From positions 1 to 64,000 of the forward strand of contig QPGO01000284.1 in the NCBI GenBank assembly GCA_008632985.1: DNA of 64,000 nucleotides, written 5' to 3'. The notes under the pieces were generated by a model. That model saw nothing but the letters and a program-made list of their open reading frames with translations, was not told where the DNA came from and made no database searches. This document shows, one piece after another, positions 1-42,834 of the stretch. Within the stretch, counting starts at the first letter, position 1; each line of letters starts with the position of its first letter. A program made the translations under genes and the position numbers. The stretch is from Psammoneis japonica. Its lineage: Eukaryota.

Positions 1-131
1 CACTTGTCCAAAAGTTTCGATGCTGTCTTGCGGAGCATCGCCTTGGCTTCTTTGCCCAAAAGCCCATCACATGACACAACGAATGGTGTGAAATGACGGC
101 GTTGTTCCAGACAAGGCTGGAGGTGCTTGCG
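1..131 (-). pseudogene. CRE-type non-LTR retrotransposon, restriction-like endonuclease C-terminal fragment
   Basis: Minus strand reads RKHLQPCLEQRRHFTPFVVSCDGLLGKEAKAMLRKTASKLLDK, matching the K-Y...F.PFV.S.DG..G.EA RLE end of CRE elements (KY now KH). Runs off the window. Confidence 0.65.
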
Positions 132-134
132 CTA

Positions 135-660
135 GATTGGTTGGGACAGCAGGTTTGTGGATGACAGTGGCAGTGCATGCAAGGTGACGGTGGACGGCGC
201 TGACTTTCCCATCAACAACCAATGCCGTTCGACCCGATCTGGTGTTTGCACAAATTCAACGAGGCAGGACTTGGGTGCAAAATTGCCACATGCATTCAGA
301 CAGGTTGGATTGTTTGGGTGAATGGCCCCTGCCAGCTGGTTTGCCTGATTTGAGTGCAGCTCGAGAGGCAATCAATTGTGAACTTCAAGATGGAGAGCAT
401 CACCCAGCTGATGGGGCACACAACGACAGACGCCAGCATTGTGTGGCACCGACCGGCCTGCGGAATGCCGACCAACACATGAAAACCATGGCTCGCGCCC
501 GACACGAAGCTGTCAACGGTTGGTTTGAGTGCTTTCAAACAATGACAAGAAGGTGTGTCATCATCGATTGACGCGCCATCTTGTCTTCCGAGCAGTGGCA
601 AACATCACACAGCTTTCCCTTTGATGGCCCAAACCTGCTGTCAGACACCATTTTGGATGT
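135..660 (+). pseudogene. Harbinger/PIF DDE transposase, frameshifted fragment
   Basis: Across frames: VTVDGADFPI / WCLHKFNEAGLGCKIATCIQTGWIVWVNGP / ARARHEAVNGWF / VFRAVANITQLSL. Paralogous to the transposase at 35015-36010. Confidence 0.78.
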
Positions 661-1959
661 TTGCCATCTCGACTTGATGCACAATTTGTTCACAACACAG
701 ATTGGATGATTTGCGACAGTCTAGAAAGTGTCTGCCACACACGAACGTGCTGACTGTGAGCTGCAGAAGAAACCAACAACAAACACAGACAGCATGAAAG
801 CACTGAAATGGGTTCCAAGGGCTCAATGGGAATCATTCGAAAATGTCGCGTGGGTCACAATTGGTGTTTTGCACAAGGAAAAACACAAAATCGTGTGGAA
901 ATGTGCACAATGTCATGCGAGAGAGTGATCAGAGCTAACAACTTTTCGGGAGCTGAGCTGAAATGCTGTCTGATTGATGGCATTGGCCTTCACCATGTGA
1001 GTCAAAATGCCATCAATCAGATGGCATTTCAATTGATTTCCCGAGAAGTTGACATTCATGGGCGGACAGATGGACAGACTGACATCAATGATGTCCAGTG
1101 CTCTCCCACACAATTTCCACGTGATGACTCTCAGGACCCGAATGATTCCCACTGAGAAATGATTGCTGCAATGACTGGAACAGCTTTGATTGATTGTTGC
1201 TGTGATGAAGTTGTCTGAAAAAGTGTTTGACTGGGTGGTTGCATCCAGGATTGACGCAGCACCAGCTCAAGGAGTTGCAGAACACAACCAACAGGATGGA
1301 CAGTTGCCGCATCCAAAGCTGTCATGCCGGAAAAACAGTCGAAGCAACATCCAATCTTGACCAGATTGGCTGGCCCAGTTTCTGCATCACCACAAATGAA
1401 CGACGTGTTGGCCCAAATGGATGAACCACCAGCAATGACACCACAGGCTCCGAGAATCATTCACATGCTGACTCTCAACTCTCAACCCATCAGCGGACTG
1501 TGCAAGCAACCTCTGCAGATGCCAGCTGCAGAACAGAAAAGTTTTCACCTGTTGCGCCAGGATCATTGTCAACGAAAAACAGTGCTGCATTGTTGGCAAA
1601 TTCATGAACAGCATTGTTGTGAGTGACAGCACCTGTGGGAGGCAATGGAGCATCAAAACAATGACGTGAGTGTGTGTGATGCCATTTGTGCTGCATTCGT
1701 CGCCAACAGCTGGAGCAATGGCCTTGCCACTTGCATCAGGGACACAAGTGACAGTGTCAGCGGATCAGTGTCCTGGAAAGTGGTTGGCACCGATTCCCGA
1801 GACATTGTCATGGTCGAGTCGATGTGACGAGGTGTGTGTGTTGTGAGAAAAATGGGCAAAAATGACAGGTCATGAGCTTTTAACAAAAATCACAGTGATG
1901 GCCATGCAAACGTTTTGCACCCAGTTTTGAAAAGCGTCTGTCTGACATTGTGTGTCATG

Positions 1960-2190
1960 CAAGATGGAGACAATGCCGTCTCCATTTCGCATGGTCTGTC
2001 TGGCACCAAAAGTTTGTTTGGAAAAATTGACACGTGCCTGCATTGACCATTTCACACAGTCTGTCTGGCACCAAGTTTGTTTGGAAAAATTCACACGTGC
2101 CCGCATCGATCATGCGCCGGTGCAACAATGTCTGTCCAACACAGCGTGTTGTGCAAAATGGAGATGACGCCATCTCCATTTCGCACCTGC
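1960..2190. repeat. Local repeat cluster: two ~58-bp direct repeats flanked by two similar hairpins
   Basis: gtctgtctggcacca(a)aagtttgtttggaaaaatt.acacgtgcc.gcat.ga occurs twice (~1993, ~2058). atggaga...tctccattt(cgca) hairpins at ~1964 and ~2158. Confidence 0.6.
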
Positions 2191-2964
2191 ATGACAAGAG
2201 TTGCTGAATGACAATTTGACCTTTTTTTCCTTGTGTGACCCACAGCAAACAGGCACTGAGATTCCACAAAGCTGTCAGCCATGACAACAGGGAAATGACG
2301 AAAGACCCAATTGGCGAAGAATGTGCAATTGGAAATTTGGAGGGAACCTTTGCATTTCAAGAGATGGGCAATCTGGGGTGTGTGGCAGCAGCACACAACA
2401 GAATCTTGCCGATTGACAAAGAATTGACAGTGGAGCAGGTGCACACCATTTTCAGGGTCATTTGTGGCAAAGTGATCGTGGAGGATGCAACAGTGCCAAA
2501 GAATCCGATGGGGGATGTGAAATCAGATGGTGGATGCTTCAAGAAATTGAAACCACCATCATGTCCCCTGTCGAAAGGTGTCCCCTGCAAACTGGATGAA
2601 ATCACCAACAAAGATTGGGAAAAACTGATGAATCATCAAAAGAACAAATAAAAAGGGAGCAGACATGGGAGATCACTTCCACAGGGTCAACGCAAACATC
2701 AGTCCGGTGGTCATCTCTCTGTTGGCGGGGGTGACTTGTGCAAGAAACCGCGATGTTGCAGCCATGTGTCCTCTCAGTCAACCAGATGTCAACCAAAGGC
2801 ATGCCAACAATGAAAAGATCTGCAACACAGATTGCAGCCCACTGGCACCTGTCTTCGACAAGAACTCATGTGGGGACTTTGCAGAGTGCGCATGGGCTTT
2901 CCAGCAAATCACTCAACATTGTGCCACACACAGTGATGCCCCATGTGGTCACACATCAACCTGC

Positions 2965-3353
2965 GATGGGTTCCAGTCCTGGGTGGGACTCCGTGTGACA
3001 CTGGGCCCGCAGAATTCTGTGTGCAAGCTCTGCAGTTCGTACTCTGGTCAATGGATGCATTTGTCTTTGACACAAAACAAACGGCCAAATTTGCAGTGCA
3101 CACATCTCTGTTGGTGCTCGAAGTTTTGGACAACGCGCCTGCCCCACGCCATTCTTAAGACACTCGAGAATGGCGTAGAAGAAAAAAACATTGTAAGTTG
3201 CTGAATGGATCGCCTGACAATTGTGCCATAAAATGATGCAAAATTTTGCCAAAATCACACAGAAATGTACGTGCGCGACATGCGACACGATTCAAAAAAC
3301 TGTCGATGTCACAGTTCAGCAGTGCGAGGTCCCACCTAGGCCTGGAATGCTTT
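2965..3353 (+). mobile_element. MITE family copy (degenerate right TIR)
   Basis: gatgggttccagtcctgggtgggactccgtgtgaca...gtcccacctaggcctggaatgc; interior similar to the copy at 31104. TSD not clear. Confidence 0.85.
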
Positions 3354-4878
3354 GCTGTTTGCTTTGCTCACACATGCCAAGATGGAGGGCAACAATGCGG
3401 GCACAAGGGTGCAATTGACAGATTTGAAAGATGACTGGAGCATTCGGCAGAAGGGACTTTTCCTGACGTGCACACTTCATGTGCTTTTGGATCAACAACG
3501 CAATTCTTTGAGGAAGATGGCTGACTTCGAATCCTTGCACAAAAGATTGCAAAACATCTTGTGCCAAACTTTTGCCATTCAAAATGCATGTTTCGCCCCT
3601 TTCATGCACTGCAAGAACAAGATGACATGCAACAAATCTGTTCTCATGTTGGAGCACAAGCTGACGTTCCAAGCAATTGCATCCATTCGAAGCTCCTTCC
3701 TCAAAAGACAGCACCGCATGTTGGGCGTTAACCTGGCACTCATGCAGATGTTTCCCCCAAGGCAATTCAGCGAGTTGTTGGGGAAAAAATTGAATTGTGA
3801 AAAACAAGCACTCATGGACAGGATGTTGAAGAGAGCACCACTGGCAATGTTGTCTCCGTGCGTTGAAGAAAAATCCGAGCCGCACTTCGAGCTTGGTTTG
3901 TTTGGGGAAAGAAGTTTGTTCCTCTGCAAAAGATGCAGCAAGGTCATCCAAGCCGACACCACATTGGGTTCAAGGCAAAGCTTCAAGGATGCCTCAATCA
4001 GTTTGCTCAAGGATGCGCAGCTGAACATGCACAAATGGATGTTGGGTGAGCTGCGATGCAGGAAGGTGGTCACAGACAAGGAGGCCATGCAACCAAAGGA
4101 GAAAGGCAGTGACAGTGTCAAGCACATCAAAGTGCACAAGGGACTCAGGAAAATGGGGCTCAAGCATCTGTTCACTTCCAACTGCAAACCTGCAAAGGCT
4201 GTGGTTCAAAAGGCAAGGGAGGACACCAGCAGGAACCTCGAGCTGGGCAGCAATGTTGATGAAGCAGGAAAGTTTGCCGATGCAATGACCAAAACCTTGC
4301 GTGAAAGGAAATGACCTGGGTTGTGCAACAGCACAAAGCCAATGAGAGAAAGGGCTGGCATTGCCGGATTGATGATGTTGTTCACAAATTTTGTTTTTGA
4401 CAGCCAGTCCACCAAAACACTGAGCAAGTCATCAGAGGATCCCACCAATCTGAACCCACCCTGCTGGAGGGATTGCAATTTTTGTTTGTGACAGAATTGG
4501 GAGAAGGAGAAGATGAAAAAGTCCTTCGCAACTGCACAGGGCTGAACAATTTGGCTGAAAACGTGCAGGGAGAGGTGGTGGGTCTGTCATGACGGAGTTC
4601 CTGGTGATGGAAACTGCTGACAATGACGCACACACATTGAGACAATTCCTTGCTTTGGTGGGCCACAATGATTTCATGCTCAAGAAATGGTGCTTGACAT
4701 TTGCTCAATCACTCCTTTTCCTTGACATCACAGGGAACGAAAAGGGCAAATTACATTTGGTGAGTGTCAGAGCAATGGAGCCACATGACAATCTCCACAT
4801 GACAAGTGAAAGCCGCCAATTGTTTGGTTGTGTGCCTGAAAACCAAATTTCTTTTCTTTTCTTTTTGAAGGGAATTTT

Positions 4879-6898
4879 TGTGAAGGAACAGATTCACTTC
4901 AGAGGATTTGACAGCAAAGACGAGGAGGACACTTTTGCACCTGAAGAGCCTGAATCGGGGCAGACATTTGGAGTCACCTGTCAAACCTGCAAAGACGCAA
5001 TGAACCAAACGGATGGCACATCTCCAAGGATTGTCAACTGCTGGAATTTCAAAACTCTTTTTGATGAAGACACAGAGTCAAAAAAATGATTTGAGCACAA
5101 ATGCAGCTTGATTCACAAGAACTTCAGCAAGGCAATGCCGCGGGCGCACAACAACACAATGTGCGATGGATTCAAGAAGGAAAGACTGGAGAATGAGGAC
5201 AAAGCAAGAAGGTGATTTTGAAAGACAGAATGAAGGAAGAGAGCCAGAAAAGGAGGGCAAAAAAGGAAAAAAGCAGTCAAAGCAGGACGAGGCAGACACT
5301 GCAAACAAAAATGATGCAGAAGCGGCACAAGCAGAGGACACAGCAGAGGAACAGCAAGAGGGAGACAATGACGAAGGGGTGCACATCACCTTGGCAGAAC
5401 TGCAGCACAAAGATGGGAGCACACAACAAGTGGGCAAGGATGCAGCTGGCAACCCCGCTGTGGAACATGACAAGGAAGTGGACAAGAAAGAGGAGAAGGA
5501 GAGGGAGGCATCAGAGCAGGAGGAAGAGGAAACTTGCAACAGCAATGATGAAGATGACGATGACAAACATGGAGATCACACCCCTGACAAAGACAGGGAT
5601 GACACCCCCCCTCAAGATGAACAGCCAAAGAAAGATCATTCAGATGAGGGGAGCAAAGGGGCACCGGCAAGCCACCAGATGACAAAGCAACTTCTGTTGG
5701 AGACGGAATGTCAGAGGAGAACAACCAGCAACAGGAGGGGCAAGGAAATGACAAAGCAGATGAAGAGGAACCGTCTGCTGCAAACCCTGAGCAACAGGCA
5801 GAAGAGGACAACCAAAACATGGATCAAAGCATTGAGCCATCCGTGGCTTTGCAGAGTGAGGCAGATTTGAATGATGGATCCCTTCCAGGTGGGAGCAACA
5901 ATGACATCAGTGACATCCCAGAGCAACTCCAACAAGTGCCACGCTCCACTGCAAGGAACAATCCGGTGAGCACGCATTTTGGCTCCTCATCCTCTGAGTT
6001 GGAGTTTGAGGCATCAGATGATGATGGCCCTTCAAGTGCTGTGGTTGCTGCCAAAGTTTCAGCCACAATGAAAACCCCATCAAAAGCATCTGAACCACCA
6101 AACAAGGATGTGAGGAAAAGAGTTGTTTGAGAAACACCAGATCGCGAGACAAAAAAGGACACAAGGAAATGCAGGGCAATGGCAGAGGCCAAAAAGGAGG
6201 AAAAAAAGGAACGCACAAGGAGGAAGAAAATTGAGGCAGACAAGAAAAAGGGGGGGGAAGCAGGCGGCAAGAGCGAAGGCAATGGAGGCAGCAAGAAAGG
6301 AAAAGGAAAAAATGAAGAACACCAGCAAACCAAAGAAGGACATGCCGATGACAGGAAGAGTGTTGGCAGTGCAACTGCCACCCATCCCAACAAATTTGGC
6401 AAAGAAAAAAAGACGTTCAACTGGCCGCGGAACAAAAAACAACAAAAATGAAGTTCAGGCAGTTGGGCACATGCATCGACAACAAAAATGTTTGTGTGGA
6501 GCATCGCAGTCTCAAAATGGCTGCACTGCTGTGAGCCCCACAACACTCATTGTCCACTTTTTGTTTTTGGGTTTGTGGCAATTTTGGCACTCAGTTGCTT
6601 GTTTTGGGTGTTGCTTTCAGCCACACTGTTGGTCACAACATGTGTGAAACGATGCAAGACTGACTCGATTTGTGGGGCGACATGTCCTCGGCTCGACTGC
6701 AGCTGCCAAATGGACACAGGTGCGCACCCATTTTTGCATGGTCTGTCCATTGACAGGAGCAAAATTGCATCAATCGCTTTGGCAAATGTGCGTCCTGAGT
6801 TTGGCTGTGGATGCGAAACAGATGCAGGTGCACATCCATTGCTCGTGGTCTGTCCTTCAACCGCAGCCACTTGACATCGATTGGGTGGGGTCTGTCAC
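4879..6898 (+). repeat. Dispersed repeat R1 copy 1 (degenerate acidic/Lys-rich ORF of an unclassified element)
   Basis: Colinear with 23011-24979, from tgtgaaggaacagattcacttcagagga to ggtggggtctgtca. Cut at its 3' end by the satellite. Confidence 0.85.
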
Positions 6899-6901
6899 CA
6901 G

Positions 6902-7430
6902 ATGGCCAAGGGCGCAAAATCACAAAGGGTGCAAAATCACAAAGGGCACAAAATGGCCAAGGGCACAAAATCACAAAGGGCCGCAAAATGGCAGCAAAGG
7001 GTGCAAAATCACAAAGGGCGCAAAATGGCAGCAAAGGGTGCAAAATTACAAAGGGTGCAAAATGGTGGCAAAGGGTGCAAAATCACAAAGGGTGCAAAGT
7101 GGACAAATCACAGAGGGTGTGAAATCACAAAGGGCGCAAAATGGCAAAGGGCGCAAAATCACAAAGGGCTCAAAATCACAAAGGGTGCAAAATGGCGGCC
7201 CAGGGTGAAAAATCACAAAGGGCGCAAAATGGCCAAGGGTGAAAAATGGCGGCAAAGGGCGCAAAATCACAAGGAAAGCAAAATGGCGTCAAAGGGTGCA
7301 CAATCACAAATGGCGCAAAATCTCAAAGGGCGCAAAACAGCCAAGGGCTCAAATTCACAATGGGCGCAAAATGGCAGCAAAGGGTGCAAAATGGCAGCAA
7401 AGGGTGCAAAATCACAAAGGGCACAAAATC
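6902..7430 (+). repeat. 17/20-bp modular satellite, array 1 (AAGGGTGCAAAAT orientation)
   Basis: Tandem caaagggtgcaaaatca / ccaagggcgcaaaatgg / ggcagcaaagggtgcaaaat units. Confidence 0.95.
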
Positions 7431-10184
7431 GATGACATGGTCCATCAGCTGAAGAGCAGCAGCTGTGCGCCCAATGTGTTTCTTGCAGTTCGTTGTGATT
7501 GCACCTCCGTCTGTCTCCAGGTGTGAGTGACAATGTGGCAGATGCTTGACCTGATTTGTGTCGCATGGACAGTGACCTTGGTGAGCTCCTGCCAACTTGT
7601 CTGCTCGGATGTTGACTCTGGCATTTAAATGCAGTGTGTGCGCTGGAGATTGCCTGTCTTGGTGTCCCTTTGCCCATCGCACGGGAGGCAAGGCAAGGTC
7701 TTCTGAATCCGATGACTGCTTCAGAGCTTGCTGGGCATGGAGGATCTCATTCAAAATGTCCCAGTCTGGTGCAACAGTGTTGGCCCCGTGATGGCGGATG
7801 TGAAAATCGTGTTTCTCGTGCGCGTCATTCTTGGGATCAATCACCGGCAGAGTGGGCGTTAATTTGGACAAACAGTTCACCAGTGCTTTGTCATCACAAT
7901 GAATGACTGCATCCAAAGGAACCACAACACGGCAGCATTTGCACAGTCGGCAAATGAATCTTGCAATTGAAAGAATGCCGCAAGCCTCTGCTTGACATGA
8001 GGACGGAGTCTTGCCAAAAACTGGCCCTGCACAATCAACTGGTGGTGCCCCGTCAATGGCGACAGTCCACCCAAAGGTGGCCCCATCTTGGACTGACCCG
8101 TCACTGCCTGCGGCAAGAGCAGACAAAAGAAAGTGTTGGGCCACTGCTCAGGGAGAAATGTGGAACACCAAGTCTTCAAACAGCGTAGATTCCCACGTGT
8201 CCAGTCCTTGAAGATGCACTAGAAAGGAATCGGGGGAGGCCGGAGAGCGAGAGTCGGTTGATGAGGTGCGCGGGATCTTGAATCGCCAATGGCTGTCCTC
8301 GATTGTAGACACCTCTGCCGGGTGTGAAGCATCAGAGGGAGTCGGTGCAGTCTCGATTTCCCTTGTAGAATCGGCGGTTGTCCCATTTGCTTGGAAGATG
8401 TCAAAACCTGATGAGGAGCACACATGCAAATGTTCTTCAGCAGGGGAAAAACATGCAGTCAACTGCATTCTCATCTGGGACGGTGGCACCAGCCAATCTC
8501 CCAGAGGTTCCTTTAAATGCAGTGACTTCAGGTGACACAGAGCTGAGCAAAATTTCTTCCACACGGTCCAGGCTCTTGGACAAGGCTTGCACTGTTCGAC
8601 ATTGTTGAGGGTGCCAACGCTGCTTTGCAGGGACGGATCACCTTGCATTTTCGACCCATCCAGTGTCGTCCCATCCAAGAGAGCAATGTCGGAAACAGAT
8701 GAGACTTTCAAGTGCAAGTGGCAACAGTTTGTCCAACAGATCTCTCATGCAGCAAAGGACTGGGAATGCAATGCAATGTCCATCAAATGCTGGTCATTGT
8801 CTCTTTGAAGTGGAAGGACCCCATTGTGGAGCAGGAACACACAACCATTCATCCATTGCAAAAATGCTCTGACCGACGTGAACCATCGGGATTCCATGTG
8901 AGGCAACCCGGCATCTACGTCCCACAAAAAACTCTCGCCAGTTCCCAAATTCAGTTGGATCCATGCTGCTGCGACCTGAAGAAGTTTGTGCGGTTGATCC
9001 TCCCCAAGTTGCAAGTGTTGGACTCCTCTCGCGTGCTTCAACACTTGTTGCAGTTGGGCTGCACCTTGCTTGACGTCAAGTGATCGAAAACCTCCTCCTC
9101 TGAGGGATTGCAGTCCACACAAAATTGCCCGTTTGGTGTTCCCATTGTGCCTGCATTTGGCGAACATCGTCCGCATGGCCTTTTGTTGAACTTGTTGGAG
9201 TTCTTTTGGGAGAAAGTTTGAATTGGCCAGTGTGCATGTCATCAAAGACAAATGACAAGCATGGCAGCACCGCCATGTTTCTCTTCTGTCCAAGGGACAC
9301 GACCGGAGAAATGAGGTGACAGCATCAATCTTGTGTTGCAGCTTCTGCAGTTGAGTCTTCTGAGTTCCTGTGGGAGCCATGCAGTGTCCCAGGGTTTTGT
9401 GAGGTGTGCATGCAGACAATTGCTTGCTGCACCTGGAAGTGGACCGGTCTGCAGAAAAAATTTCCACTTTGATGTCATCATGACAAGGGTGGACATGCGG
9501 TTCATCACTTTCCATGAAATCCCACTCGATGGCATGGAGTGAACATTTTGGTGACTCCAACTTGTGCCCGGCAGCATCCAGCAGGTCACACCACAACTGG
9601 CCATCCGATTGTAGAGACCTGGACAACTCGAAAGTGGAAGGCTGGGGGTTGGCTCTGAAATCATTCACTTGCTTGGAAGTGTCGTTGACGTAACCTTGGT
9701 TGAAGACTTGGACATGGAACTGTCCGTCTGGGGTTTCAAAGCATGAGCCAACAGCCTCGGCATCAAAAATGTCAAACAGTCCACTGCATTGGGCATTCCA
9801 GCACCAGGGAGAGTTCCCGCCACCCTGTCCTGTCCCGCACAAAGGATGATCGGAGGAATGAGAGCAACTTCGCTGGGCGAGTCCCAACAGAGTGTGCAAC
9901 CAGCAGCGTGCATGGTGCAACGTTGCCATGTTGACTTTGACCACTCGTTCGTGCATGCCATCGCTCTTCGCACACAGGCCGACAATCGCTGGAATGTTCC
10001 CATCATGGCAAGAAGTGCAATCGTTTTCACTGGTTGGCAGTGTTTTTCTGGATGCATGTGAAATCTCCATCATCAAATTTTCAAGAAACACTGGTGTTTG
10101 AGCAGAAAGGAACAAGCGGCATCCGCAGATCCCTGGGTTGCACATGCGATGGTGTTCCACATGTTGAGCTGGCTCTCGCCACTT

Positions 10185-10580
10185 GATGCGTTCCAGACAC
10201 AGGTGGGAATCCGTGTGACATTGGGCCCGTAGACTTCTGCGTGCGAGCTCCGCAGTAAAATCACACGGCAATTAAAATGTCAATGATCGCCAACAGAAAA
10301 TGAGGCAATTTTGCGAACGCACAAACTCGCCCATGATTGAAGTGCATCATTTTTTACTTGGCCAGTTACATTCTTCAGACATTGAAGAATGCACCTGGCG
10401 CATCATTGTTTCTGTAAATTCGTCATGCAAAACGTCTGGGGCTTTGCAAAACAGCGAGTCTGGACAATTTTTTTTAAATGTCACACGCAGAAATCTACGT
10501 GCGAAACATGCGACAGATGGCAAAAATTGTTTGTGTCACACGTCAGTGCTGCGAGCTCCCACCCAGGGCTGGAACGCGTC
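10185..10580 (+). mobile_element. MITE family copy, 396 bp, TSD ACTT
   Basis: actt|gatgcgttccagacacaggtggga...tcccacccagggctggaacgcgtc|actt. Inserted in the LINE RT. Confidence 0.95.
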
Positions 10581-10774
10581 ACTTGACACTTGCGATCAAT
10601 TGGAAGTCCGCCTCGTAGATGTGAATCACACGCAACTGATGAATCTTGTCATTGCCTGGTTCTTTGAAAATCACAACGTCAACAATGTCTTTCCACTGTT
10701 CGTGCGAGTGGCCCCACTTCAGCGCACAATTGATCAGGTTGAGCCGCATTGCCACGAGAGACTGTTGGACCGAA

Positions 10775-11170
10775 GACGCGTTCCAGCTCCAGGTGGGACC
10801 TTGCACTGCTGAACTGTGACACAATTGTTTTTTGTCATCCGTCGCATGTTTTGCACGTGCATTTCTGCGTGTTCCATTGTAAAAAATTGTTCCACACTGC
10901 CTGTTTTGCGAAGCCAAAGGCTTTCTGTCATCTGCGTTCATGTCAACAAAAATGCACTGGGAACGTTCTTTAATGTCTGAAGAACATGCCCGGGCACACT
11001 GCAAAGAATGCACTTCAAGTGTGGAGGAGGAGATGTGTTCGCAAAATTGCCTCTTTTTCTGTTGGCTGTCATTCATGTGTCCATTGCTTGACAATTTTAC
11101 TGCGGAGCTCGCACGCAGAATTCTGCGGGCCCAATGTCACAAAAAGTCCCACCCAGGACTGGAACCTGTC
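10775..11170 (-). mobile_element. MITE family copy, 396 bp, TSD CGAA/TGAA
   Basis: cgaa|gacgcgttccagctccaggtggga...tcccacccaggactggaacctgtc|tgaa. Confidence 0.93.
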
Positions 11171-12281
11171 TGAATCTGGCAGTTCTTTCTGCTCAGATGG
11201 ATTCCCGTCGTCGTCGTGATTGGATGCATGAGAATGGGGAGCATGCGCGGCTTTCCAGTGTCCCAAATGAGTCCCAGATTTCAATGATGCAGACACAGAT
11301 TCTCACCACAATGCCATCTTTGACTGGAGAGCCTCGGGAGTGAGAGCGTTGGGAACTGCTGGTGGTGTGCGTCTTCGTAGATGCTGCATCAGTGATGATG
11401 TGGCCCGACTCAGGTGGTCCGTTTCGCGCTCCCCGTCTAAGATCAATTCGGCCATTGTGGCATCTCCTTTGCATCCGAGATCAACTGACAAGGGAGGGAC
11501 TGTGGGAGGAGCTCCATGTGCCTGTCTGAAATGGCGTTGACTGCAATGCTGGAGAGCAGATTCAACGTCTTCTGGAGCATCAATCATTGTCCAGTTCTCG
11601 CATGTCTTGGGATTGTCTCAAGGATCCGCAGGGATCTGAACAGCTCACACGCTGGAATCTTCTGACTTTTTACACGTGTTGATTTTCTGAAAGACTCGCT
11701 TGGTTTCTTCAGCACAGTGTTGGTTTTGCAGCAAACGAGCTTTTGCCTTTGACTGGTTTGCACACTCCAGCTTGAGTTCCGCGACACGTGTGTCTCTCTC
11801 AGCTTCACGATGTTTCTGACTCTCTTGTGTCACCTGTCGACATTCTGTCTGAGCCTTCCGCAGTGCGGCAGTGCACTCCTGTGAGGTCACTGGAAGAACA
11901 AATGAGTTCTTTAAATCAAACTTGGCACACAGAACAGCAGGCACCACACTCACTTTGTTGCAAAACATTGACATCATCCTGGACAATGCAAAGATCTGTT
12001 TTTGCAGGTCAGCCAATTTGACAGACAATTTGGGCTCTGTGCACCGGCGGCAACATTTGGCGGATGCTGAGCAGAACTGCGGCATGTCGCAATCAAGTCT
12101 CTCTGCCAATTTGTGGTCAGAGATCTTGAGCTGCAGCAATGACTCTGTACGTTCCCTGACGTTTCGACTTTGTGGAAGGGGCGCCATTGTCTCCAGGCAA
12201 GCAGCAACGTGTTCCGGAGAATTTGCATGTAAATCACGATGTTGCATGTGAGGTGGGTCAACAGCAGGATTGCCAAACAAA

Positions 12282-15200
12282 GTGACTTTGCCGCCGTTTT
12301 GAGCCCTTGGTGATTTTGTGCCCTTTGTGGTTTTGCGCCCTTGTCCATTTTGCGCCCTTTGTGATTTTGCACCCGTTGCTGCCATTTGGCACCCTTTGTG
12401 ATTTTGAGCCCTTTGTGAATTTGCGCCATTTGTTTGTTTTGCACCCTTTGATGCCGCTTTGCACCCTTTGCCGCCATTTGTGCCCTTGGCCATTTTGCGC
12501 CCTTTGTGATTTTGCGCCCTTGGCCATTTTGCACCCTTTGTGATTTTGCGCCCTTTGCCGCCATTTTGCACCCTTTGTGATTTTGCACCCTTGGCCATTT
12601 TGCGCCCTTTTTGATTTTGAGCCCTTTGTGATTTTGAGCCCTTGGCCATTTTGCACCCTTTGTGATTTTGCACCCTTTGCCGCCACATTGCACCCTTTGT
12701 GATTTTGCGCCCTTTGTGATTTTGCACCCTTTGTCATTTTGAGCCCTTTGCGACTTTGCGCCCTTGAACATTTTGCGCCCTTTGTGATTTTGCACCCTTT
12801 GCCGCCATTTTGCACCCTTTGTGATTTTGAGCCCTTGGAACTTTGCGCCCTTGGCCATTTTGCACCCTTTGTGATTTTGAGCCCTTGGCCACTTTGCGCC
12901 CTTTGTGATTTTGCACCATTTGCCACCATTTTGCACCCTTTGTGATTTTGCACCCTTGGCCATTTTGCACCCTTGGCCATTTTGCGCCCTTTGTGATTTT
13001 GGGCCCTTTGTGATTTTGTGCCCTTGGCCATTTTGCTCCCTTTGTGAATTTGCACCCTTTGCTGCCATTTTGCACCCTTTGTGATTTTGCGCCCTTTGTG
13101 ATTTTGCGCCCTTGGCCATTTTGCGCCCTTTGTGATTTTGCACCCTTTGCCGCCATTTTGCACCCTTTTTGATTTTGTGCCCTTGGCCATCTTGCGCCCT
13201 TTGTGATTTTGCGCCCTTTGCCGCCATTTTGCACAATTTGTGATTTTGCACCCTTGGCCATTTTGCGCCCTTTTTGATTTTGAGCCCTTTGTGATTTTGA
13301 GCCCTTGGCCATTTTGCACCCTTTGTGATTTTGCACCCTTTGCCGCCATTTTGCACCCTTTGTGATTTTGCACCCTTTGTGATTTTGAGCCCTTTGTGAT
13401 TTTGTGCCCTTGGCCATTTTGCTCCCTTTGTGAATTTGCGCCCTTTGCCGCCATTTTGCACCCTTTGTGATTGTGCGCCCTTTGTGCTTTTGCGCCCTTT
13501 TGGCCATTTTGCGCCCTTTGTGATTTTGCACCCTTTGCCGCCATTTTGCACCCTTTGTGATTTTGAGCCCTTTGCGACTTTGCGCCCTTGGCCATTTTGC
13601 ACCCTTTGTGATTTTGCACCCTTTGCCGCCATTTTGCACCCTTTGTGATTTTGCACCCTTTGCCGCCATTTTGCGCCCTTTGTTTGCACCCTTTGTGACT
13701 TTGCACCATTTGCCGCCATTTTGCGCCCTTTGTGATTTTGAACCCTTTGCTGCCATTTTGCACCCTTTGTGATTTTGCGCCCTTTGTGATTTTGCGCCCT
13801 TGGCCATTTTGCTCCCTTTGTGATTTTGCACCCTTTGCCATTTTGCACCCTTTGTGATTTTGCACCCTTGGCCATTTTTCGCCCTTTGTGATTTTGCACC
13901 CTTTGCCGCCATTTGGCGCCCTTTGTGATTTTGAGCCCTTTGCGACTTTGCGCCCTTGGCCATTTTGCACCCTTTGTGATTTTGCACCCTTTGCCGCCAT
14001 TTTGCACCCTTTGTGATTTTGCACCCTTTGCCGCCATTTTGCGCCCTTTGTTTGCACCCTTTGTGACTTTGCACCATTTGCCGCCATTTTGCGCCCTTTG
14101 TGATTTTGAACCCTTTGCTGCCATTTTGCACCCTTTGTGATTTTGCGCCCTTTGTGATTTTGCGCCCTTGGCCATTTTGCTCCCTTTGTGATTTTGCACC
14201 CTTTGCGATTTTGCACCCTTTGCAGCCATTTTGCGCCCTTTGTGATTTTGTGCCCTTTGCCGCCATTTTGCGCCCTTTGTGATTTTGCCCCTTTGGCCAT
14301 TTTGCACCCTTTGAAATTTTGCACCCTTTGCCGCCATTTTGCACCCTTTGCGATTTTGCACCCTTTTTTATTTTGCACCCTTGGCCATTTTGCACCCTTT
14401 GTGATTTTGAGCCCTTTGCAACTTTGCGCCCTTGGCCATTTTGCACCCTTGGTGATTTTGAACCCTTTGCCGCCATTTTGCACCCTTTGTGGCTTTGCGC
14501 CCTTTGTGGCTTTGCACCCTTTGTGATTTTGCACCCTTGGCCATTTAGCACCCTTTGTGATTTTGAGCCCTTTGTGATTTTGAGCCCTTGACCACTTTGC
14601 ACCCTTTGTGATTTTGCACCCTTTGCCGTCATTTTGCACCCTTTGTGATTTTGCACCCTTTGTTGTGATTTTGCACCCTTTGCCGCCATTTTGCACCCTT
14701 TGCTGCCATTTTGCACCCTTTGTGATTTTGCACCCTTTGTGATTTTGCACCCTTGGCCATTTTGCTCCCTTTGTGATTTTGCACCCTTTGCAATTTTGCA
14801 CCCTTTGTGATTTTGCACCCTTTGCCACCATTTTGCACCCTTTGTGATTTTGCACCCTTGGCCATTTTGCACCCTTTGTGATTTTGCACCCTTTGCCTCC
14901 ATTTTGGGCCCTTTGTGATTTTGCACCCTTGGCCATTTTGCACCCTTTGTGATTTTGAGCCCTTTGCGACTTTGCGCCCTTGGCCATTTTGCGCCCTTTG
15001 CACCCTTTGCGATTTTGCACCCTTTGCAGCCATTTTGCGCCCTTTGTGATTTTGTGCCCTTTGCCGCCATTTTGCGCCCTTTGTGATTTTGCGCCTTTTT
15101 GGCCATTTTGCACCCTTTGAAATTTTGCACCCTTTGCCGCCATTTTGCACCCTTTGCGATTTTGCACCCTTTTTGATTTTGCACCCTTGGCCATTTTGCA

Positions 15201-17269
15201 CCCTTTGTGATTTTGAGCCCTTTGCGACTTTGCGCCCTTGAACATTTTGCACCCTTTGTGATTTTGCGCCCTTTGCCGCCATTTTGCACCCTTTGTGATT
15301 TTGCACCCTTTGCCGCCATTTTGCTCCCTTTGTGATTTTGAGCCCTTTGCGACTTTGCACCCTTGGCCATTTTGCACCCTTTGTGATTTTGCACCCTTTG
15401 CCGCCACTTTGCACCCTTTGTGATTTTGCACCCTTTGCCGCCATTTTCTGCCCTTTGTGATTTTGTGCCCTTTGTGATTTTGCGCCCTTGGCCATTTTGC
15501 TCCCTTTGTGATTTTGCACCCTTTGCGATTTTGCACCCTTTGCAGCCATTTTGCGCCCTTTGTGATTTTGTGCCCTTTGCCGCCATTTTGCGCCCTTTGT
15601 GATTTTGCGCCTTTGGCCATTTTGCACCCTTTGAAATTTTGCACCCTTTGCCGCCATTTTGCACCCTTTGCGATTTTGCACCCTTTTTGATTTTGCACCC
15701 TTGGCCATTTTGCACCCTTTGTGATTTTGAGCCCTTTGCAACTTTGCGCCCTTGGCCATTTTGCACCCTTGGTGATTTTGAACCCTTTGCCGCCATTTTG
15801 CACCCTTTGTGGCTTTGCGCCCTTTGTGGCTTTGCACCCTTTGTGATTTTGCACCCTTGGCCATTTAGCACCCTTTGTGATTTTGAGCCCTTGACCACTT
15901 TGCACCCTTTGTGATTTTGCACCCTTTGCCGCCATTTTGCACCCTTTGTGATTTTGCACCCTTTGTTGTGATTTTGCACCCTTTGCCGCCATTTTGCACC
16001 CTTTGCTGCCATTTTGCACCCTTTGTGATTTTGCACCCTTTGTGATTTTGCACCCTTGGCCATTTTGCTCCCTTTGTGATTTTGCACCCTTTGCAATTTT
16101 GCACCCTTTGTGATTTTGCACCCTTTGCCACCATTTTGCACCCTTTGTGATTTTGCACCTTTTGTGATTTTGCACCCTTGGCCATTTTGCACCCTTTGTG
16201 ATTTTGCACCCTTTGCCTCCATTTTGGGCCCTTTGTGATTTTGCACCCTTGGCCATTTTGCACCCTTTGTGATTTTGAGCCCTTTGTGACTTTGCGCCCT
16301 TGGCCATTTTGCGCCCTTTGCACCCTTTGCGATTTTGCACCCTTTGCAGCCATTTTGCGCCCTTTGTGATTTTGTGCCCTTTGCCGCCATTTTGCGCCCT
16401 TTGTGATTTTGCACCTTTTTGGCCATTTTGCACCCTTTGAAATTTTGCACCCTTTGCCGCCATTTTGCACCCTTTGCGATTTTGCACCCTTTTTGATTTT
16501 GCACCCTTGGCCATTTTGCACCCTTTGTGATTTTGAGCCCTTTGCGACTTTGCGCCCTTGAACATTTTGCACCCTTTGTGATTTTGCACCCTTTGCCGCC
16601 ATTTTGCACCCTTTGTGATTTTGCACCCTTTGCCGCCATTTTGCTCCCTTTGTGATTTTGAGCCCTTTGCGACTTTGCACCCTTGGCCATTTTGCACCCT
16701 TTGTGATTTTGCACCCTTTGCCGCCACTTTGCACCCTTTGTGATTTTGCACCCTTTGCCGCCATTTTCTGCCCTTTGTGATTTTGTGCCCTTTGTGATTT
16801 TGCGCCCTTGGCCATTTTGCTCCCTTTGTGATTTTGCACCCTTTGCGATTTTGCACCCTTTGCAGCCATTTTGCGCCCTTTGTGATTTTGCACCCTTTGC
16901 CTCCATTTTGGGCCCTTTGTGATTTTGCACCCTTGGCCATTTTGCACCCTTTGTGATTTTGAGCCCTTTGCGACTTTGCACCCTTGGCCATTTTGCACCC
17001 TTTGTGATTTTGCGCCCTTGGCCATTTTGCACCCTTTGTGATTTTGAGCCCTTTGCGACTTTGCGCCCTTGGCCATTTTGCACCCTTTGTGATTTTGCAC
17101 CCTTTGCCACCATTTTGCACCCTTTGCGATTTTGCGCCCTTGGCCATTTTGCGCCCTTTGTGATTTTGCACCCTTTGCCGCCATTTTGGGCCCTTTTTGA
17201 TTTCGCACCCTTTGTGATTTTGCAACCTTGGCCATTTTGTCCCCTTTGTGATTTTTTGCCCTTTGCGAT
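12282..17269 (-). repeat. 17/20-bp modular satellite, array 2 (~5 kb) with 1,320-bp higher-order repeat
   Basis: Units gcaccctttgtgatttt (17), gcacccttggccatttt (17), gcaccctttgccgccatttt (20). Lines at 14161/15481/16801 and at 14881/16201 are identical (offset 1,320). Confidence 0.96.
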
Positions 17270-17453
17270 TGAACAAACGCTGCCATGACAGCCAAGAATT
17301 GGGTGTGAGACAAGACAGAGTGCACGACAGCATCAACAGGTTCCAGAGTTGTGAGATGTCACGCTGCTGGGACCACCAAATGAGCGACAGTGGACCAATT
17401 GCCAATGTTGTGTGAATTGCCAGCATTCGTGACAGTGTGCCAGCATTTGTTCA
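17270..17453 (-). repeat. 3' LTR of the Copia element (184 bp)
   Basis: Bounded by the 8-bp inverted repeat TGAACAAA...TTTGTTCA. On the minus strand it is preceded by a purine tract (ttcaagggggc) just after the RNase H end. Confidence 0.8.
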
Positions 17454-20400
17454 GCCCCCTTGAACTGACGCTGGCTCCACTTGGGCCAGATTGACAGACA
17501 AGTGCAACCTGATGCTGCCCTGCTCCAGGGCAGCATTTTCATGTTGGGGATGGGAAAAGCCGCACATGCGTGGCAAACCCATTCTGTTTGTCCCCTTTTG
17601 GGGCTTGCCACAGGACATGACTTGCAATTTCCTGGAGCTTCAGCCCAGGCAACAACTTGGTTGGCACGTCCGCCAAATTCGTGTGCCCGTCTTCCCAAGC
17701 AATGCGCGCTGTTCCAGCAGCTTGTGCCTCGCAAGTCCTGTGACAGGCAATCGCATTGTGCTTCTTCTTCAAAGCAGACTCTGGCTCAGTTGAGTTCTTG
17801 AAGACAGCTTCATTGTCGCAGATGACATCAGCGGCTCCATCCACGGGGATTCCCAGCATCCGAAGCTTGCAATGCAAGGCTTCAATTTGCTCCACTGCAG
17901 TCTTCATTGCCATGAACTCTGACCCAAAAGTGGATGATTTCATGGCATTCTGCTGCTCAGAGCAACACAAGATGGGAGCTTGTTGTTGAATGTCAGGATC
18001 CCAGTGTGGGACCTGCACATCACACAGCATCCGGCATGATCAGCGTTGACAAAGCAAGCAGCAGTCATGCTGTTCCCACGTGCTTCTGGCATGTTCGGCG
18101 GAATTGGTTCAGCCGCACCAGGACAATGTTCTCCCTGGTTGCACTTGGCAAAACGACTCTTGTCAAAGACCGGCTCAATGTCATCGAACACTGGCGCAGA
18201 CTTGGAGCGAGCCTTCAAGCATGCAAAGACATGGAGCACCTCGTCCAGGTGTTGAACTCGTGGTGCTGCCAAGCAGGAGAACATGAGTGAGAAAGCAACA
18301 AAAATGTCCACTTGCCTCAGCTCAACTGTCCATTGCAGCACACCAACAAGGCCTTGGCAGCAGTTGGCCATTTTGGCACTCAACTCAGGCAAGCCATCCA
18401 GCTCAGGCCCATGCCCCGAGCTCAAGGGCATCAATGCCTTTGTCAGAAGGCCCGCCAGTTTTCTTGAGCTCCAACTCAACATCGGCCAATGCCCTTTTGA
18501 CACAAAGGTCAGAGGACATGGCCCAGCGTGTCTTGCCATCCAAGTCAGACAACTGGCACTTTCTGATCTGGGCGCCCAAGCACTCTTCCGGCTCACAGAC
18601 ACTTCCGTCCTTGCGCCCGTGCCTGGAGCTCACATGATCCACGACCTTCTGAGGTTCATGGGAGATGCACAACAAGTCATCCATGCACACAAGCACATGT
18701 TCCCAGTGCTTGAAGCCACCCGGCTTGACCGCAGCTCACATCCAGACATCCGGGTCAGCCTTGCAAGACTCAAACCCAGCGTCATGCAAGGTGGCTGCCA
18801 TGTGTTCCCTGAATCTCGCACCTGAAGACTTGAGACCACACAAGGCTCAGACAACAATTGCCAGCCTTCCTTCGTTGTGCTTCCCAAATTCCAGGCCAGC
18901 AGCAGTGCAACACTTCTCCTCAGTGTGTGCGTTCAAGTGGGCACTCTGAACGTCAGCACTCAGGACCTCCAGGTCATTCAGAGCTGCTGCAGCAAATGCT
19001 GTCCCAGCGCTGTCATGTGATGCCACACCAGAACAAGTCAATTCCTTGGGTGGATTGGTTTGATGGCCTCCGGCCACAAACCTTGCTTTGCGTTGGAGGG
19101 TGCTCTTGATGTCAAAGATCACATGACAGTCAATGTGATTGTGCCTGACCGGTGCAGTGTCGTCATCACAGAATTCAAGCGCAGGCATGACGTTGCGCAT
19201 TTCCTTCTCAATGTTTGCTGCAGCGCACTCAGCAACCTCGACTGGGTCAGATTCCTTCAAATCCTTGAGGGGAACCCAGGATGCAGTCCCGTCCTTCCAT
19301 TTGACTTGCAGGTCCCAGCCTGCAGTTGTCCTCCCAGGAGCGTGCCTGCCAGTCTCAGACGTCATGCACCTGTCATCAGCCGTTGCGGCACGGGCATCAC
19401 ATTGGTGATCAACTGTCTCCTTCACAATCTGGCAGGCATTCCCTTCAGAGTCCATCTGAGCAAACAGGTTCTCTGCAATTGCGTCAGCGGCACAGGAATC
19501 AGTGGATCCATCAGGAAACTCCACATCGTGTGTCCTCAAGTCTGGGACAGGGTTGTCATTCCCAGCACCAATGGGAACCCCGTCATCATCTTATTTGCAT
19601 GCAATGACGTCCATGAAGTCATCAGGGAGTTCAGGGAAGTCAGCATTGGCACCCTGTTCCGGGATGTCGAGTCATTCAATCAAGGCCTGATTGACTGACG
19701 CAAGATCTGTTTTGATTGCCAGAGTTTTAAGGTCATCCTCCGGCATGGCCCACACATCTTTCTGAATGATGGGTCTGCCTGATTTGGGCAGGATGACAAA
19801 TGCCATGTCGTCAGTGCAGTTGCAGTTGTCAGCTGCTCCAAGCCAACGGCCGATGCACTTCTTCTTGTGTGGGAACTCTGCCACAGGCATGTGACAGCAG
19901 ACAGGTTGACACCAATCAAAGAGAGAGAGAGAGCGACAAAATGTCAGGTGTTGAACCTGTCACCTCTTCTTCTGGGACTCATCCTCCCATGTCTGATGTG
20001 CTGGCAGTCGCAATCATGCGTTGGACATCACATGTCCACTTGGCACTGCGGGACCAAAGTCGCCTGTGAGCGCCAGTCCGGCGCAGAGTCACTCGGACTC
20101 TCTTCTTCAACTCATGGATGGATGCCTTGGCCAGGTTCTGCCAGGGGCTGTGCGGGGTGGACACCTCCTGGTGCATCCTGCATTCCTTGCAAATCTCCTT
20201 GGTCTGGCCTTCTGCCATTTAAGGTGCGCCATCAAACACAAGGACTTGACATGACGGCACTCAGGTGGCCCTGTTTCTCTTCCAAGGATGGAGCCTGTCA
20301 TGCCCTCTTCCATTGGCAAATGTGCTCCCTCCCATCTTGCCATGCATTGACCTGACCTTCGAAAACATCTGGTCAGAGCAGAGGTGTCCTTTGACAGCAG

Positions 20401-20651
20401 GGAACTCAAGCCACGGGGCTTTCTTCCAGACTTTCCGCTCAGATGGCACGCAGACATTGCGGACCCCTGCCTGGGTTGTCACTCTGAGGGTGTTCTTGGT
20501 GGCCGTCACACCAATGCTCCACCTCTTGGAGAGCATCTCGGGTGTGATGGTTGATGCATGACTTGAGGTCAACAGCGCATGCACCCATTTCTGCTTGGCA
20601 CAATCCGGGTGGATGTCTGGGTTGCACCGGTCGTGCAGCCCATCTCCCTCA

Positions 20652-21034
20652 GACAGGTTCCAGCCCCAGGTGGGACTTTTTGTGACATTGAGCCCGCAGA
20701 ATTCTGCACGCGAGCTCCGCAGTAAAATCACTGGGCAGCAAACATGTGGGTGATCACCAACAGAAAAAGGGGCAATTTTGCAAATGCATCTCCTCCTCCA
20801 CACTTGAAGCACGTACTTTGCAGCATGCCAGGGTGTGTTCTTCAGACATTGAAGAACACACCCAGCGTGTTTTTGTTGACATGAAGCCTTTGGCTTCGCA
20901 AGACAGGCGGTGTGGAACAATTTTTTGTGACAGAGCACGCAGAAATGTGTGTGTGAAACATGCGACGGATGACAAAAAACAAACACGCCACAGCTCAGCA
21001 GTGCAAGGTCCCACCCAGAGCTCTGGAGCACGTC
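20652..21034 (+). mobile_element. MITE family copy, TSD CTCA
   Basis: ctca|gacaggttccagccccaggtggga...tcccacccagagctctggagcacgtc|ctca. Inserted in the Copia. Confidence 0.93.
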
Positions 21035-21128
21035 CTCAATGTTGTTGTGGGAGATGCGTTCGCCTGAGCAACCAGGCGGCAATGCAGAGAATTGTCGTCA
21101 TCAGTGTCCAGCATGTGGTTTTTAGTTG

Positions 21129-21240
21129 TTTTGCACCCTTTGTGATTTTGAGCCCTTTGTGATTTTGAGCCCTTGGCCATTTTGCACCCTTTGTGATTTT
21201 GAGCCCTTTGCGACTTTGTGCCCTTGGCCATTTTGCACCC
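21129..21240 (-). repeat. 17-bp modular satellite, array 3 (short)
   Basis: ttttgcaccctttgtgattttgagccc...ggccattttgcaccc. Confidence 0.93.
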
Positions 21241-28000: not shown

Positions 28001-28152
28001 GGCTGGTCAACAAACGAGTGCCACATGGGACTGTTGACAGCCCCATTTGGGACATGGTCATGAGCACAAACAATGGGCCACAAATGCAGCAGGTTGTCAC
28101 TGGTTGTGAGCACTGTCGATTTGAGACCAGAGTTGGTCCCATTTGGGAATGT

Positions 28153-28577
28153 GCAGTGTGCATGCAGACAAAAGGTCATTTTTGTCACGCCTTTTGTGAC
28201 ATTTAAAGGCTGCAACACGTCGCCGTGATGCATTGACTCTTGTTGGCAGCTGTGTGTTGCACTCCTCCCCATGTGTCACGTGTCCACACGGCTCTTTACC
28301 AACGTGCACTGACACTGCACGGTTTTGGTGGAACAGTGTGGGCACGCACGAAGGAACATGCAGAACTGCACAGAGTTTTGCGCATTCGACAGTGATCAAT
28401 GTTGCTGCAGACAACTCCCACTCAGGGTTTCGAACCCCTGGCCTCCTGCCCAATGGTTGCGATGAACCACTCCGCTGTGAATTCACAACGCAGTGTGCAT
28501 GCAGACAAAAGGTCATTTTTGTCATGCCCTTTGTGACATTTAAAGGCTGCAACACGTCGCCGTGATGCATCAACTCT
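28153..28577. repeat. ~88-bp direct repeat pair (28153-28240, 28490-28577)
   Basis: gcagtgtgcatgcagacaaaaggtcatttttgtca.gcc.tt.gtgacatttaaaggctgcaacacgtcgccgtgatgcat..actct occurs twice. Confidence 0.85.
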
Positions 28578-29259
28578 CATCAGTGGCTGCACATTGCAAA
28601 TGCTTAAACCGGTTGGGAAAAGGACATCACTCACCACTCATTTTGCAATTCATCAAACTGTCAACACATCTGGCTGCACTGTCCATGTCGAGCACCAAAG
28701 ATCCATCATCGGATGGAGCCACGTTCAGCCCAAAGTCAACGAACAGACATGTGTCATCGGCCAGAGGGAGCTGCTCCATGTCGATGATTTCTCCCAAACC
28801 ACCTGACAAATCTGTCAAGTGATTTTTGCACTTCTGGACAAAAAGGGATCTTAAAGTTTGATCTGTGTTCACCCGCACAAGTGTTTTTTACACCAATGGC
28901 TTGTGCGGCAAACATTGTGTTTGCACAAAGCTCCTGTGCAACATTTGCAAGCTTCTGTGGAGAGAGACATTTCTCTTCGTTGAGCCCGGTCATCCTGGGA
29001 CCCCTGATGATGTCCTCAGCGGTGAAGCCAGGATCACCATTTGCAATGGCATCAAGAACTTCAACGAAACCATCAATGAACATACAGGCACAGTTGCCCC
29101 GGATTTTGTTGGTCACATTTTCTTGTTTTGGACGTTTGTGCTCTCCTCGTAAATCGTCTTGAGCCTCAAACACCGCAACGCTCTGCAGCTGGAGCAACAG
29201 TGCATTCTGCCATTCTTTTTGCTCATCAGCGAACTTCTCCTCATTTTTGTCCTGTCCAT

Positions 29260-42274: not shown

Positions 42275-42289
42275 TGGGCTGATGCGCGC

Positions 42290-42760: not shown

Positions 42761-42834
42761 GCTGCTGCCTGCACTGCTGTTGCTGATGCACCTCTGCTTG
42801 TTGTTTTTTTTAACATGCAAAGTGCCTGATCCAC

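Follow-up and report, generated by a model that had tools for sequence, protein, structure and literature searches.

A mutator that is aimed at particular regions, acts on one dinucleotide and turns A:T into G:C pairs is so far documented in one 2026 preprint and in one alga, Bigelowiella natans. According to that preprint, the DNA of integrated giant viruses and virophages in mutation-accumulation lines of B. natans acquired A-to-G and T-to-C changes that were restricted to TpA, with a rate of about 6e-7 per site per generation; the hypermutation was ~1000 times background and was seen in only some lines (Mettrop et al. 2026, bioRxiv 10.64898/2026.01.13.699255). Other TpA-poor clusters in the same genome are described there as bearing transposon domains, and the authors propose an ADAT2 homologue as the agent; the main text gives no flank analysis beyond the dinucleotide and does not mention diatoms, and the supplements may hold flank data (bioRxiv 10.64898/2026.01.13.699255). 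Here, the loss of TpA (hereafter TA) was analyzed in a diatom, in 64,000 nucleotides of Psammoneis japonica DNA (contig QPGO01000284.1, positions 1 to 64,000, hereafter the window). This loss is specific to TA, runs in one direction, is confined to part of the window and depends on the bases flanking the site. What is new is a TA signature near saturation in a diatom, together with the first flank code for such a process.

Fungal repeat-induced point mutation (RIP) changes C to T at CpA, which creates TpA and lowers GC content. In Escherichia coli and enterobacteria, Vsr very-short-patch repair corrects T:G mismatches at CTAG to G:C, so that CTAG, turned into CCAG or CTGG, is scarce. No report of TpA being lost from diatom repeats came up in literature searches. 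The starting point of the present work was an earlier note on positions 130–10580 of the window, which had proposed from the letters alone that the few TAs left there stand in a biased context and betray a mutator with an extended sequence preference.

Loss of TA from the non-genic DNA of the window

The whole window contains 522 TAs, 0.13 of expectation, with TG and CA each at 1.55. The deficit separates an eroded compartment from a gene island, positions 59151–64000, which served as the uneroded reference for comparisons (Table 1). TA density switches between 58822 and 59196, that is, over about 400 bp, upstream of a gene. GC content is 0.494 in eroded DNA versus 0.424–0.453 in uneroded transposon copies.

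Eroded DNA is nearly devoid of TAA and TAG and is therefore crowded with long false open reading frames (ORFs) in all six phases; 109 frames of at least 150 aa, counted stop to stop in six phases, were present in the 64 kb. Of the eroded-DNA ORFs with 120 aa or more, 150 were scanned against Pfam and none matched; this set was drawn from 184 by excluding 9 in satellite arrays and 25 beyond 52.1 kb. In a separate domain scan of 13 long ORFs (three of them satellite, four beyond 52.1 kb), the only real domain was that of the gene-island kinase. All coding signal has been lost from the eroded DNA.

The type of change could be read from a family of miniature inverted-repeat transposable elements (MITEs) of ~400 bp with 4-bp target duplications, of which the window holds nine full-length and two partial copies, named here by their first position. 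Copies 31104 and 56689 are uneroded. The youngest pair, 56689 and 10185, is 92.4% identical over 396 bp and shows 30 differences, almost solely A:T-to-G:C transitions: 20 of them are TA in the uneroded copy and TG (8) or CA (12) in 10185, with none in the reverse sense, and the others comprise 6 CpG-type changes, 3 other transitions and 1 transversion. Counted per adenine with strands pooled, A-to-G changes affected 20/56 adenines in TA, 0/75 in AA, 2/52 in CA and 1/45 in GA, and weak-to-strong (W-to-S) changes outside TA were not raised. The loss grows with ordinary divergence, from no TA change in the young copies to 20/28 sites at 92% identity, and nearly all TAs have gone from copies carrying 40–50 transversions. 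No TA-to-CG double outcome occurred among the recorded states of young-copy TA sites.

Many sites of the MITE family have TG in one copy and CA in another, for which an ancestral TA is the sole explanation. A second, 2-kb repeat family has 30 sites of this kind, which by the same argument were ancestral TAs.

That A-to-G change is confined to TA excludes neutral drift, GC-biased gene conversion and a polymerase-eta-type signature. Biased conversion favours W-to-S changes whatever the neighbour, at odds with the clean pair, and the WA hotspot of polymerase eta, of the somatic-hypermutation type, comprises A-to-G changes at both TA and AA, at odds with 20/56 against 0/75. The earlier note had already judged drift and biased conversion insufficient, rightly on these counts; the polymerase eta signature it had offered for comparison is not matched.

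Flanking bases and the survival of TA sites

In the interval of the earlier note, every residual TA it had named was present, each in the context given. The expectation for this interval was taken from the flanks of its own TG and CA sites. ATA/TAT accounted for 2 of its 33 TAs versus 44.6% expected (binomial p = 1.6e-6), whereas at least one TA[AG]A half-site, i.e. TAAA or TAGA, or TTTA or TCTA on the opposite strand, was found at 21 of the 33 versus 28.4% expected (p = 4e-5). The statements that TAT/ATA sites are nearly gone and that survivors favour TAGA/TCTA and TTA/TAA contexts were thus both borne out. With both transposon copies left aside (3361–10174), the figures were 0/13 (p = 0.001) and 8/13 (p = 0.03), respectively. 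The eight TAs of copy 10185 read cgTAga, agTAaa, atTAaa, ttTAct, gtTAca, tgTAaa, ttTAaa and tcTAcg; the older copy 2965–3350 holds seven more, absent from the list in the earlier note, among them one ATA and two GTAC.

The bias extends to all eroded DNA, assessed on 263 TAs with the two uneroded transposon copies left out. With strands pooled, the base at +1 of TA was A in.46, C in.22, G in.25 and T in.07 of cases; at +2 A reached.53, +3 was biased too and +4 was flat. In tests against TG/CA flanks p lay between 5e-14 and 2e-5, and in those against gene-island TAs between 4e-11 and 0.03; tetramer classes differed from gene-island TAs with chi2 102 (p = 6e-18) and from TG/CA exposure with chi2 177 (p = 2e-33). 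A survival index, TA relative to TG/CA in the same flanks, was 0.0049 for R-TA-Y (R, purine; Y, pyrimidine), 0.020 for mixed flanks and 0.049 for Y-TA-R, so that R-TA-Y is about tenfold rarer than Y-TA-R when scaled in this way. At the extremes, ATAT survived in 0/607 cases and TTAA had the top index, 0.071. No TA context is rarer than TTAA in the gene island (6/205) and none is commoner among residual TAs (61/263), and hence the bias is not inherited composition. ATA/TAT, by contrast, made up 36 of the 263 eroded-DNA TAs versus 101 of the 205 in the gene island (p = 5e-17). The bias persisted when transposon copies and satellites were masked, and it held in the lightly, moderately and deeply eroded thirds alike.

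Half-site factors were obtained by a log-linear fit with block bootstrap after masking of all transposon copies and both satellite arrays, which left 49 kb and 222 TAs. Relative to AA following TA, survival was 0.93 for GA, 0.40–0.46 for CG, AT and AG, about 0.3 for CA, AC and GT, 0.20 for GC, 0.09–0.13 for CC, GG, TG and TT, and 0.05–0.07 for CT and TC, with 0/63 for TA. The CG factor is probably too high, as its denominator is reduced by CpG decay; compared with gene-island frequencies, TACG was in fact under-represented (5.0% versus 7.8% of half-sites). An A at +2 multiplied the survival index by 2.7 when +1 was A, by 4.5 when it was G and by 1.8 when it was C. The index of GTAC was 0.011 and that of CTAG, among the better-surviving contexts, 0.032. 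Duplex stability of the flanking steps was discarded as a cause: nearest-neighbour values make GTAC the most stable and it should survive best, which its index contradicts.

The MITE copies were used to ask whether the bias of the residual TAs reflects DIFFERENTIAL loss, with the young copies standing for the ancestral state. The two uneroded copies have 53 TA sites; followed into the eroded copies of their own subfamilies, these gave 161 TA, TG or CA observations, 25 of which were still TA. Survival was 18/69 with a TA[AG]A half-site versus 7/92 without (p = 0.002), and 4/59 at ATA/TAT sites versus 21/102 elsewhere (p = 0.02). The pair 56689/10185, which is free of pseudo-replication, gave by itself 7/12 with the half-site versus 1/16 without (p = 0.004). 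Each of the eight TAs left in 10185 has a TA as its counterpart in 56689, and in the older copies, too, most TAs coincide with a TA in another copy; the residual TAs of the MITE copies are therefore mostly survivors. Uniform survival was not found under any of three stand-ins for ancestry, and the extended preference proposed in the earlier note is supported.

Survival alone cannot show whether a half-site works 3′ of the A in its own strand or as the 5′ flank in the opposite one, but the choice of product can, and this choice was scored over 136 erosion events of the MITE family. An A followed by C was converted 63 times and spared 13 times, and one followed by CG 48 and 8 times, the CG-type contests being consistent at ~10 distinct sites in three lineages. 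Counts of converted versus spared were 21 and 41 for A before A, 22 and 51 before G, and 30 and 31 before T. In contests between one Y and one R half-site, the A before Y was converted 75 times and the A before R 26 times (head-to-head sum). CG[TA]G sites became CA, [TA]CG sites TG, and aTAa sites mostly aCAa; a rule set by the base 5′ of the T is contradicted by the first and last of these. Bulk TG/CA ratios by 3′ flank were close to those of the gene island, a comparison with little power as a test of product choice. The best single description has 5′-T-A*-Y as the fast context and 5′-T-A*-R-A as the slow one. Since R-TA-Y carries TAY on both strands and Y-TA-R on neither, this description fits survival too.

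Candidate agents and rival explanations

On balance, we favour a flank-selective mutator of TpA in the non-genic DNA of this diatom. It would act as a regional hypermutation in which TA becomes TG or CA by an A:T-to-G:C transition at TA only, at a rate set by the four nearest flanking bases, two per side. Loss would be fastest where a pyrimidine follows the A of the half-site (TAT, TACT, TACC and probably TACG), so that R-TA-Y sites, ATAT above all, would vanish first; TAAA and TAGA half-sites (TTTA or TCTA on the other strand) would be lost about 10–20 times more slowly, and present-day TAs would mostly be survivors in slow contexts. We infer that the agent is most likely a sequence-selective enzyme acting on DNA, that the base hit is the A and that the flank read is the one 3′ of it.

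The flank code narrows the field of enzymes, leaving polymerase eta, ADAR-like enzymes and plain GC-biased conversion out and a TadA-like reader in. ADAR tolerates a 5′ U or A and prefers a 3′ G; carried into DNA, such editing is contradicted here by the untouched AA, by the A before G being converted 22 times and spared 51 times, and by TAGA being among the best survivors. As one form of the mutator favoured above, we tentatively prefer a TadA/ADAT2-type adenine deaminase that would read 5′-T-A-Y. TadA and its base-editor derivatives prefer UACG(A) in RNA, the anticodon loop of tRNA-Arg (PMC8052359). A T directly 5′ of the target A, as U33, is required here too, and conversion of the A before CG in 48 of 56 MITE contests resembles that motif. 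The window differs in that TAT was lost at least as fast as TAC, in the strong protection of TAAA and TAGA, which is absent from the TadA logo, and in the weakness of the T-A-C-G preference in window-wide k-mers. In the comparison with TadA suggested by the earlier note, such a preference was seen in product choice within the transposon family and was weak in the window at large. Fungal editing, which is described as favouring UAG and UAA, fits worse, as do the preferences of ADAR and of amphioxus ADAT2.

Several observations weigh against the mutator as described. Old MITE copies partly share ancestry, and the 161 and 136 observations are accordingly not independent and partly pseudo-replicated. 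The tTAt sites of the MITEs became CA 9 times and TG 4 times, contrary to a simple 3′-T rule. In bulk eroded DNA, TGCG/CACG was 394/313 = 1.26 versus 1.12 in genes, a weak preference for TACG to become TGCG, and the 30 discordant sites of the 2-kb repeat family were 57% unbalanced, which is the default (n = 30, low power). To our knowledge, natural ADAT substrates never have a U 3′ of the hit A; they have a pyrimidine at position 32, which as a 5′ flank is the slow context here. Amphioxus ADAT2 is moreover reported to prefer GAA on DNA, not TA (PMC10354150). Finally, in the masked set, residual TAs with none, one or both half-sites of the TA[AG]A type numbered 59/139/24 versus 74/108/39 under independence (p = 2e-5), a one-sided excess that the two-strand survival model, which predicts independence or the opposite deviation, does not explain. 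A share of newly created TAs, e.g. by C-to-T at Y-C-A, would yield such an excess, and would also explain why ATA/TAT rises to 5/22 in the deepest-eroded third from 3/70 in the middle third (p = 0.018). No regional strand asymmetry was seen: TG-CA skew did not correlate with the side on which the protective half-site lies (rho -0.01).

This one-sided excess fits an account that we consider improbable, in which all TAs erode alike and those now present are mostly new, arising by C-to-T at Y-C-A (e.g. sunlight-type dipyrimidine damage) or by other back-mutations. For a TA born from Y-C-A, the Y-TA context (TA-R when read from the opposite strand) would be confined to one of its two sides; at +1, purines make up 0.73 of the pooled bases, next to the ~0.74 that one-sided creation predicts, and the rise of ATA/TAT in the deepest third is as expected with some new TAs. 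Creation is countered by the MITE copies, where all eight TAs of 10185 were already TA in 56689, TG-to-TA changes were 0/52, the TAs of older copies mostly recur in other copies, and known ancestral sites survive in a flank-dependent manner. It also leaves unexplained a free-side T threefold rarer than C (32 versus 94 sites), and the enrichment of A at +2 would demand an unknown T-Y-C-A rule. Somewhat less remote, though unlikely, is a flank-selective mutator of another chemistry, in which the T of TpA is modified (e.g. hydroxylated) and mispairs with G, or T:G at TpA is corrected to G:C by short-patch repair. As TpA is self-complementary, a change of T on one strand is indistinguishable from a change of A on the other, and the survival data fit both. 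The low CpG of the eroded compartment (0.61 versus 1.00) would suit methylated DNA, in which T:G repair enzymes are active, and a methyl-CpG-guided glycosylase could lie behind the strong influence that an adjacent CG has on product choice (48 versus 8). Against such chemistry, a repair bias could produce the sharp border between gene and non-gene only if mismatches arose regionally, and in the literature found no thymine-modifying system is documented for diatoms. The T-A-C-G preference in product choice within the MITE family, moreover, resembles the TadA motif (PMC8052359).

It could also be that the TGs and CAs are not in the DNA at all, being base-calling or consensus artefacts of a long-read assembly at heavily modified TpA in silenced DNA, with the flank bias a k-mer dependence of the base-caller. 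Base-calling artefacts are k-mer dependent, as in the bacterial Dam/Dcm cases, and a symmetric modification would give TG and CA from opposite-strand reads in rough balance, as seen. We hold this to be very improbable, as TA loss rises with the ordinary divergence of the copies, TA-to-CG double outcomes are lacking at young-copy TA sites, and the eroded DNA has no coding signal left. Real TpA hypermutation has, besides, been measured by short reads in another alga, B. natans (bioRxiv 10.64898/2026.01.13.699255). Hardly credible is the view that no selective process is involved and that the pattern goes back to ancestral composition, motif selection, neutral drift or GC-biased gene conversion. 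In its favour there is nothing except that ancestral hexamer frequencies are not known exactly; it is rejected by three different ancestral proxies, by the 6/205 and 61/263 of TTAA in genes and among residual TAs, and by W-to-S changes outside TA that are not raised.

Other features of the window

Table 1. Features of the 64-kb window (o/e, observed over expected; MITE copies of either subfamily are referred to by first position; strand "." for features without one).
Feature	Coordinates	Strand	Remarks
TA-eroded compartment	1..59150	.	No recognisable coding capacity; TA o/e 0.07, TG 1.60, CA 1.58, CpG 0.61
Gene island	59151..64000	.	TA o/e 0.60, CpG 1.00; promoter, introns and convergent-gene spacer included
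Interval of the earlier note	130..10580	.	33 residual TAs; 2 in ATA/TAT, 21 with TA[AG]A half-site
MITE, eroded	2965..3350	+	Subfamily of 31104
MITE, partly eroded	10185..10580	+	4-bp target duplication; keeps 8/28 TA sites of 92%-identical uneroded relative 56689
MITE, eroded	10775..11171	-	
MITE, eroded	20651..21034	+	
MITE, uneroded (young)	31104..31494	+	Second subfamily; TA o/e 0.87; ancestral proxy
MITE, eroded, partial	42835..43047	-	
MITE, eroded	43050..43439	-	
MITE, eroded, partial	43456..43620	-	
MITE, eroded	44993..45329	+	
MITE, eroded	54701..55057	-	
MITE, uneroded (young)	56689..57089	+	Same subfamily as 10185; TA o/e 0.85; ancestral proxy
2-kb repeat	4879..6897	+	Three copies, all eroded, without coding signal, 81-91% identity
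2-kb repeat	23011-25045		As above
2-kb repeat	32663-33830		As above
17-bp satellite, array	12200-17600	-	Start-to-start spacings 17, 37, 54, 71
17-bp satellite, array	6850-7450	+	As above
GRK-like gene	59550-61759	+	RGS domain and protein kinase domain; several short GT-AG introns, staying open in frame
Second gene	62310-63752	-	Convergent with the first; weak DUF4394 match

The border of the gene island lies ~350–700 bp 5′ of the start codon at 59550, and CpG o/e shifts at the same place from 0.61 to 1.00, which suggests that the eroded compartment is also the cytosine-methylated one. The closest relatives of the gene with RGS and kinase domains are G-protein-coupled-receptor-kinase-like proteins of pennate and centric diatoms (45–63% identity), from which the window is identified, by protein similarity, as diatom nuclear DNA. 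A dinoflagellate origin was rejected: the 15-base spliced-leader motif of that group matched once, with 2 mismatches, where chance alone predicts 0.45 such matches. The first exon of this gene had no relative among metagenome contigs, and a 19-base word of the MITE likewise gave 0 matches in such contigs. The second gene has an internal repeat, 63309–63389 matching 63920–64000 at 80% identity.

Both uneroded MITEs, 31104–31494 and 56689–57089, are embedded in fully eroded DNA and have a CpG o/e of about 1.5; the 4-bp target-site duplications were seen at the flanks of copies 10185, 31104 and 56689. The presence of two uneroded copies within fully eroded DNA shows that the family was recently active and that erosion is gradual or episodic. 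Many differences among the copies of the 2-kb repeat are adjacent double changes between TG and CA, which mark former TA sites though TA is kept in no copy. The satellite arrays have a very strong strand skew, with AT skew down to -0.59, and their unit variants differ mostly by CG, TG and CA, i.e. by CpG decay; only a handful of TAs occur in 5.4 kb, and an open frame of 1730 aa spans the array. Gene finders and repeat libraries for such genomes must allow for false ORFs in TA-free DNA.

Comparison with known systems

The flank code can be searched for in other genomes as a fingerprint, and the contrast of TACG or TAT with TAAA or TAGA offers substrates for a direct biochemical assay. Like Vsr repair, which favours G:C at T:G mismatches, the process described here removes a TA-containing word in a context-specific manner; Vsr, however, is bacterial, acts genome-wide and on one tetranucleotide, CTAG, which is among the better survivors here (0.032). 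CpG decay by deamination of 5-methylcytosine is alike in that a self-complementary dinucleotide gives way to TG and CA in silenced DNA while genes are spared, and the same eroded compartment also has its CpG at 0.61; here TpA takes that place and A:T pairs become G:C, and no base modification at TpA is known for diatoms.

Both fungal RIP and the process in the window are regional and directional, ruin repeats by transition mutations, prefer a dinucleotide and stop sharply at genes. The differences lie in the chemistry, as TpA is destroyed and CpA and TpG are created here, with a higher GC in eroded DNA, and in the uneroded copies inside eroded DNA, which indicate a gradual or episodic action instead of one instantly triggered by duplication. 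A RIP-like genome defence of diatoms with the opposite chemistry may be envisaged, in which a DNA adenine deaminase descended from the tRNA enzyme TadA/ADAT2 would have kept its reading of a word like that of a tRNA loop, 5′-T-A-Y(-G), be aimed at silenced transposons and erase nearly all of their TpA; we regard this as possible but rather doubtful. If it were true, the code of fast TAY and slow TARA would be the mark by which the system could be found elsewhere.

The closest likeness is to B. natans. As far as its preprint describes them, the three sequence-level features of that system, transition type, restriction to TpA and regional confinement, are all found here, as are TpA-poor clusters rich in CpA and TpG in foreign or repeat DNA, with host genes spared. 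The two cases differ in host, a chlorarachniophyte (Rhizaria) and a diatom, and in extent, Rho TpA being 0.45 in the viral insert versus 0.07 here over at least 59 kb, near saturation. Should the proposed deaminase be real, the same TpA-only signature in a chlorarachniophyte would mean that the system may be old and widespread among algae of the SAR group (stramenopiles, alveolates and Rhizaria).

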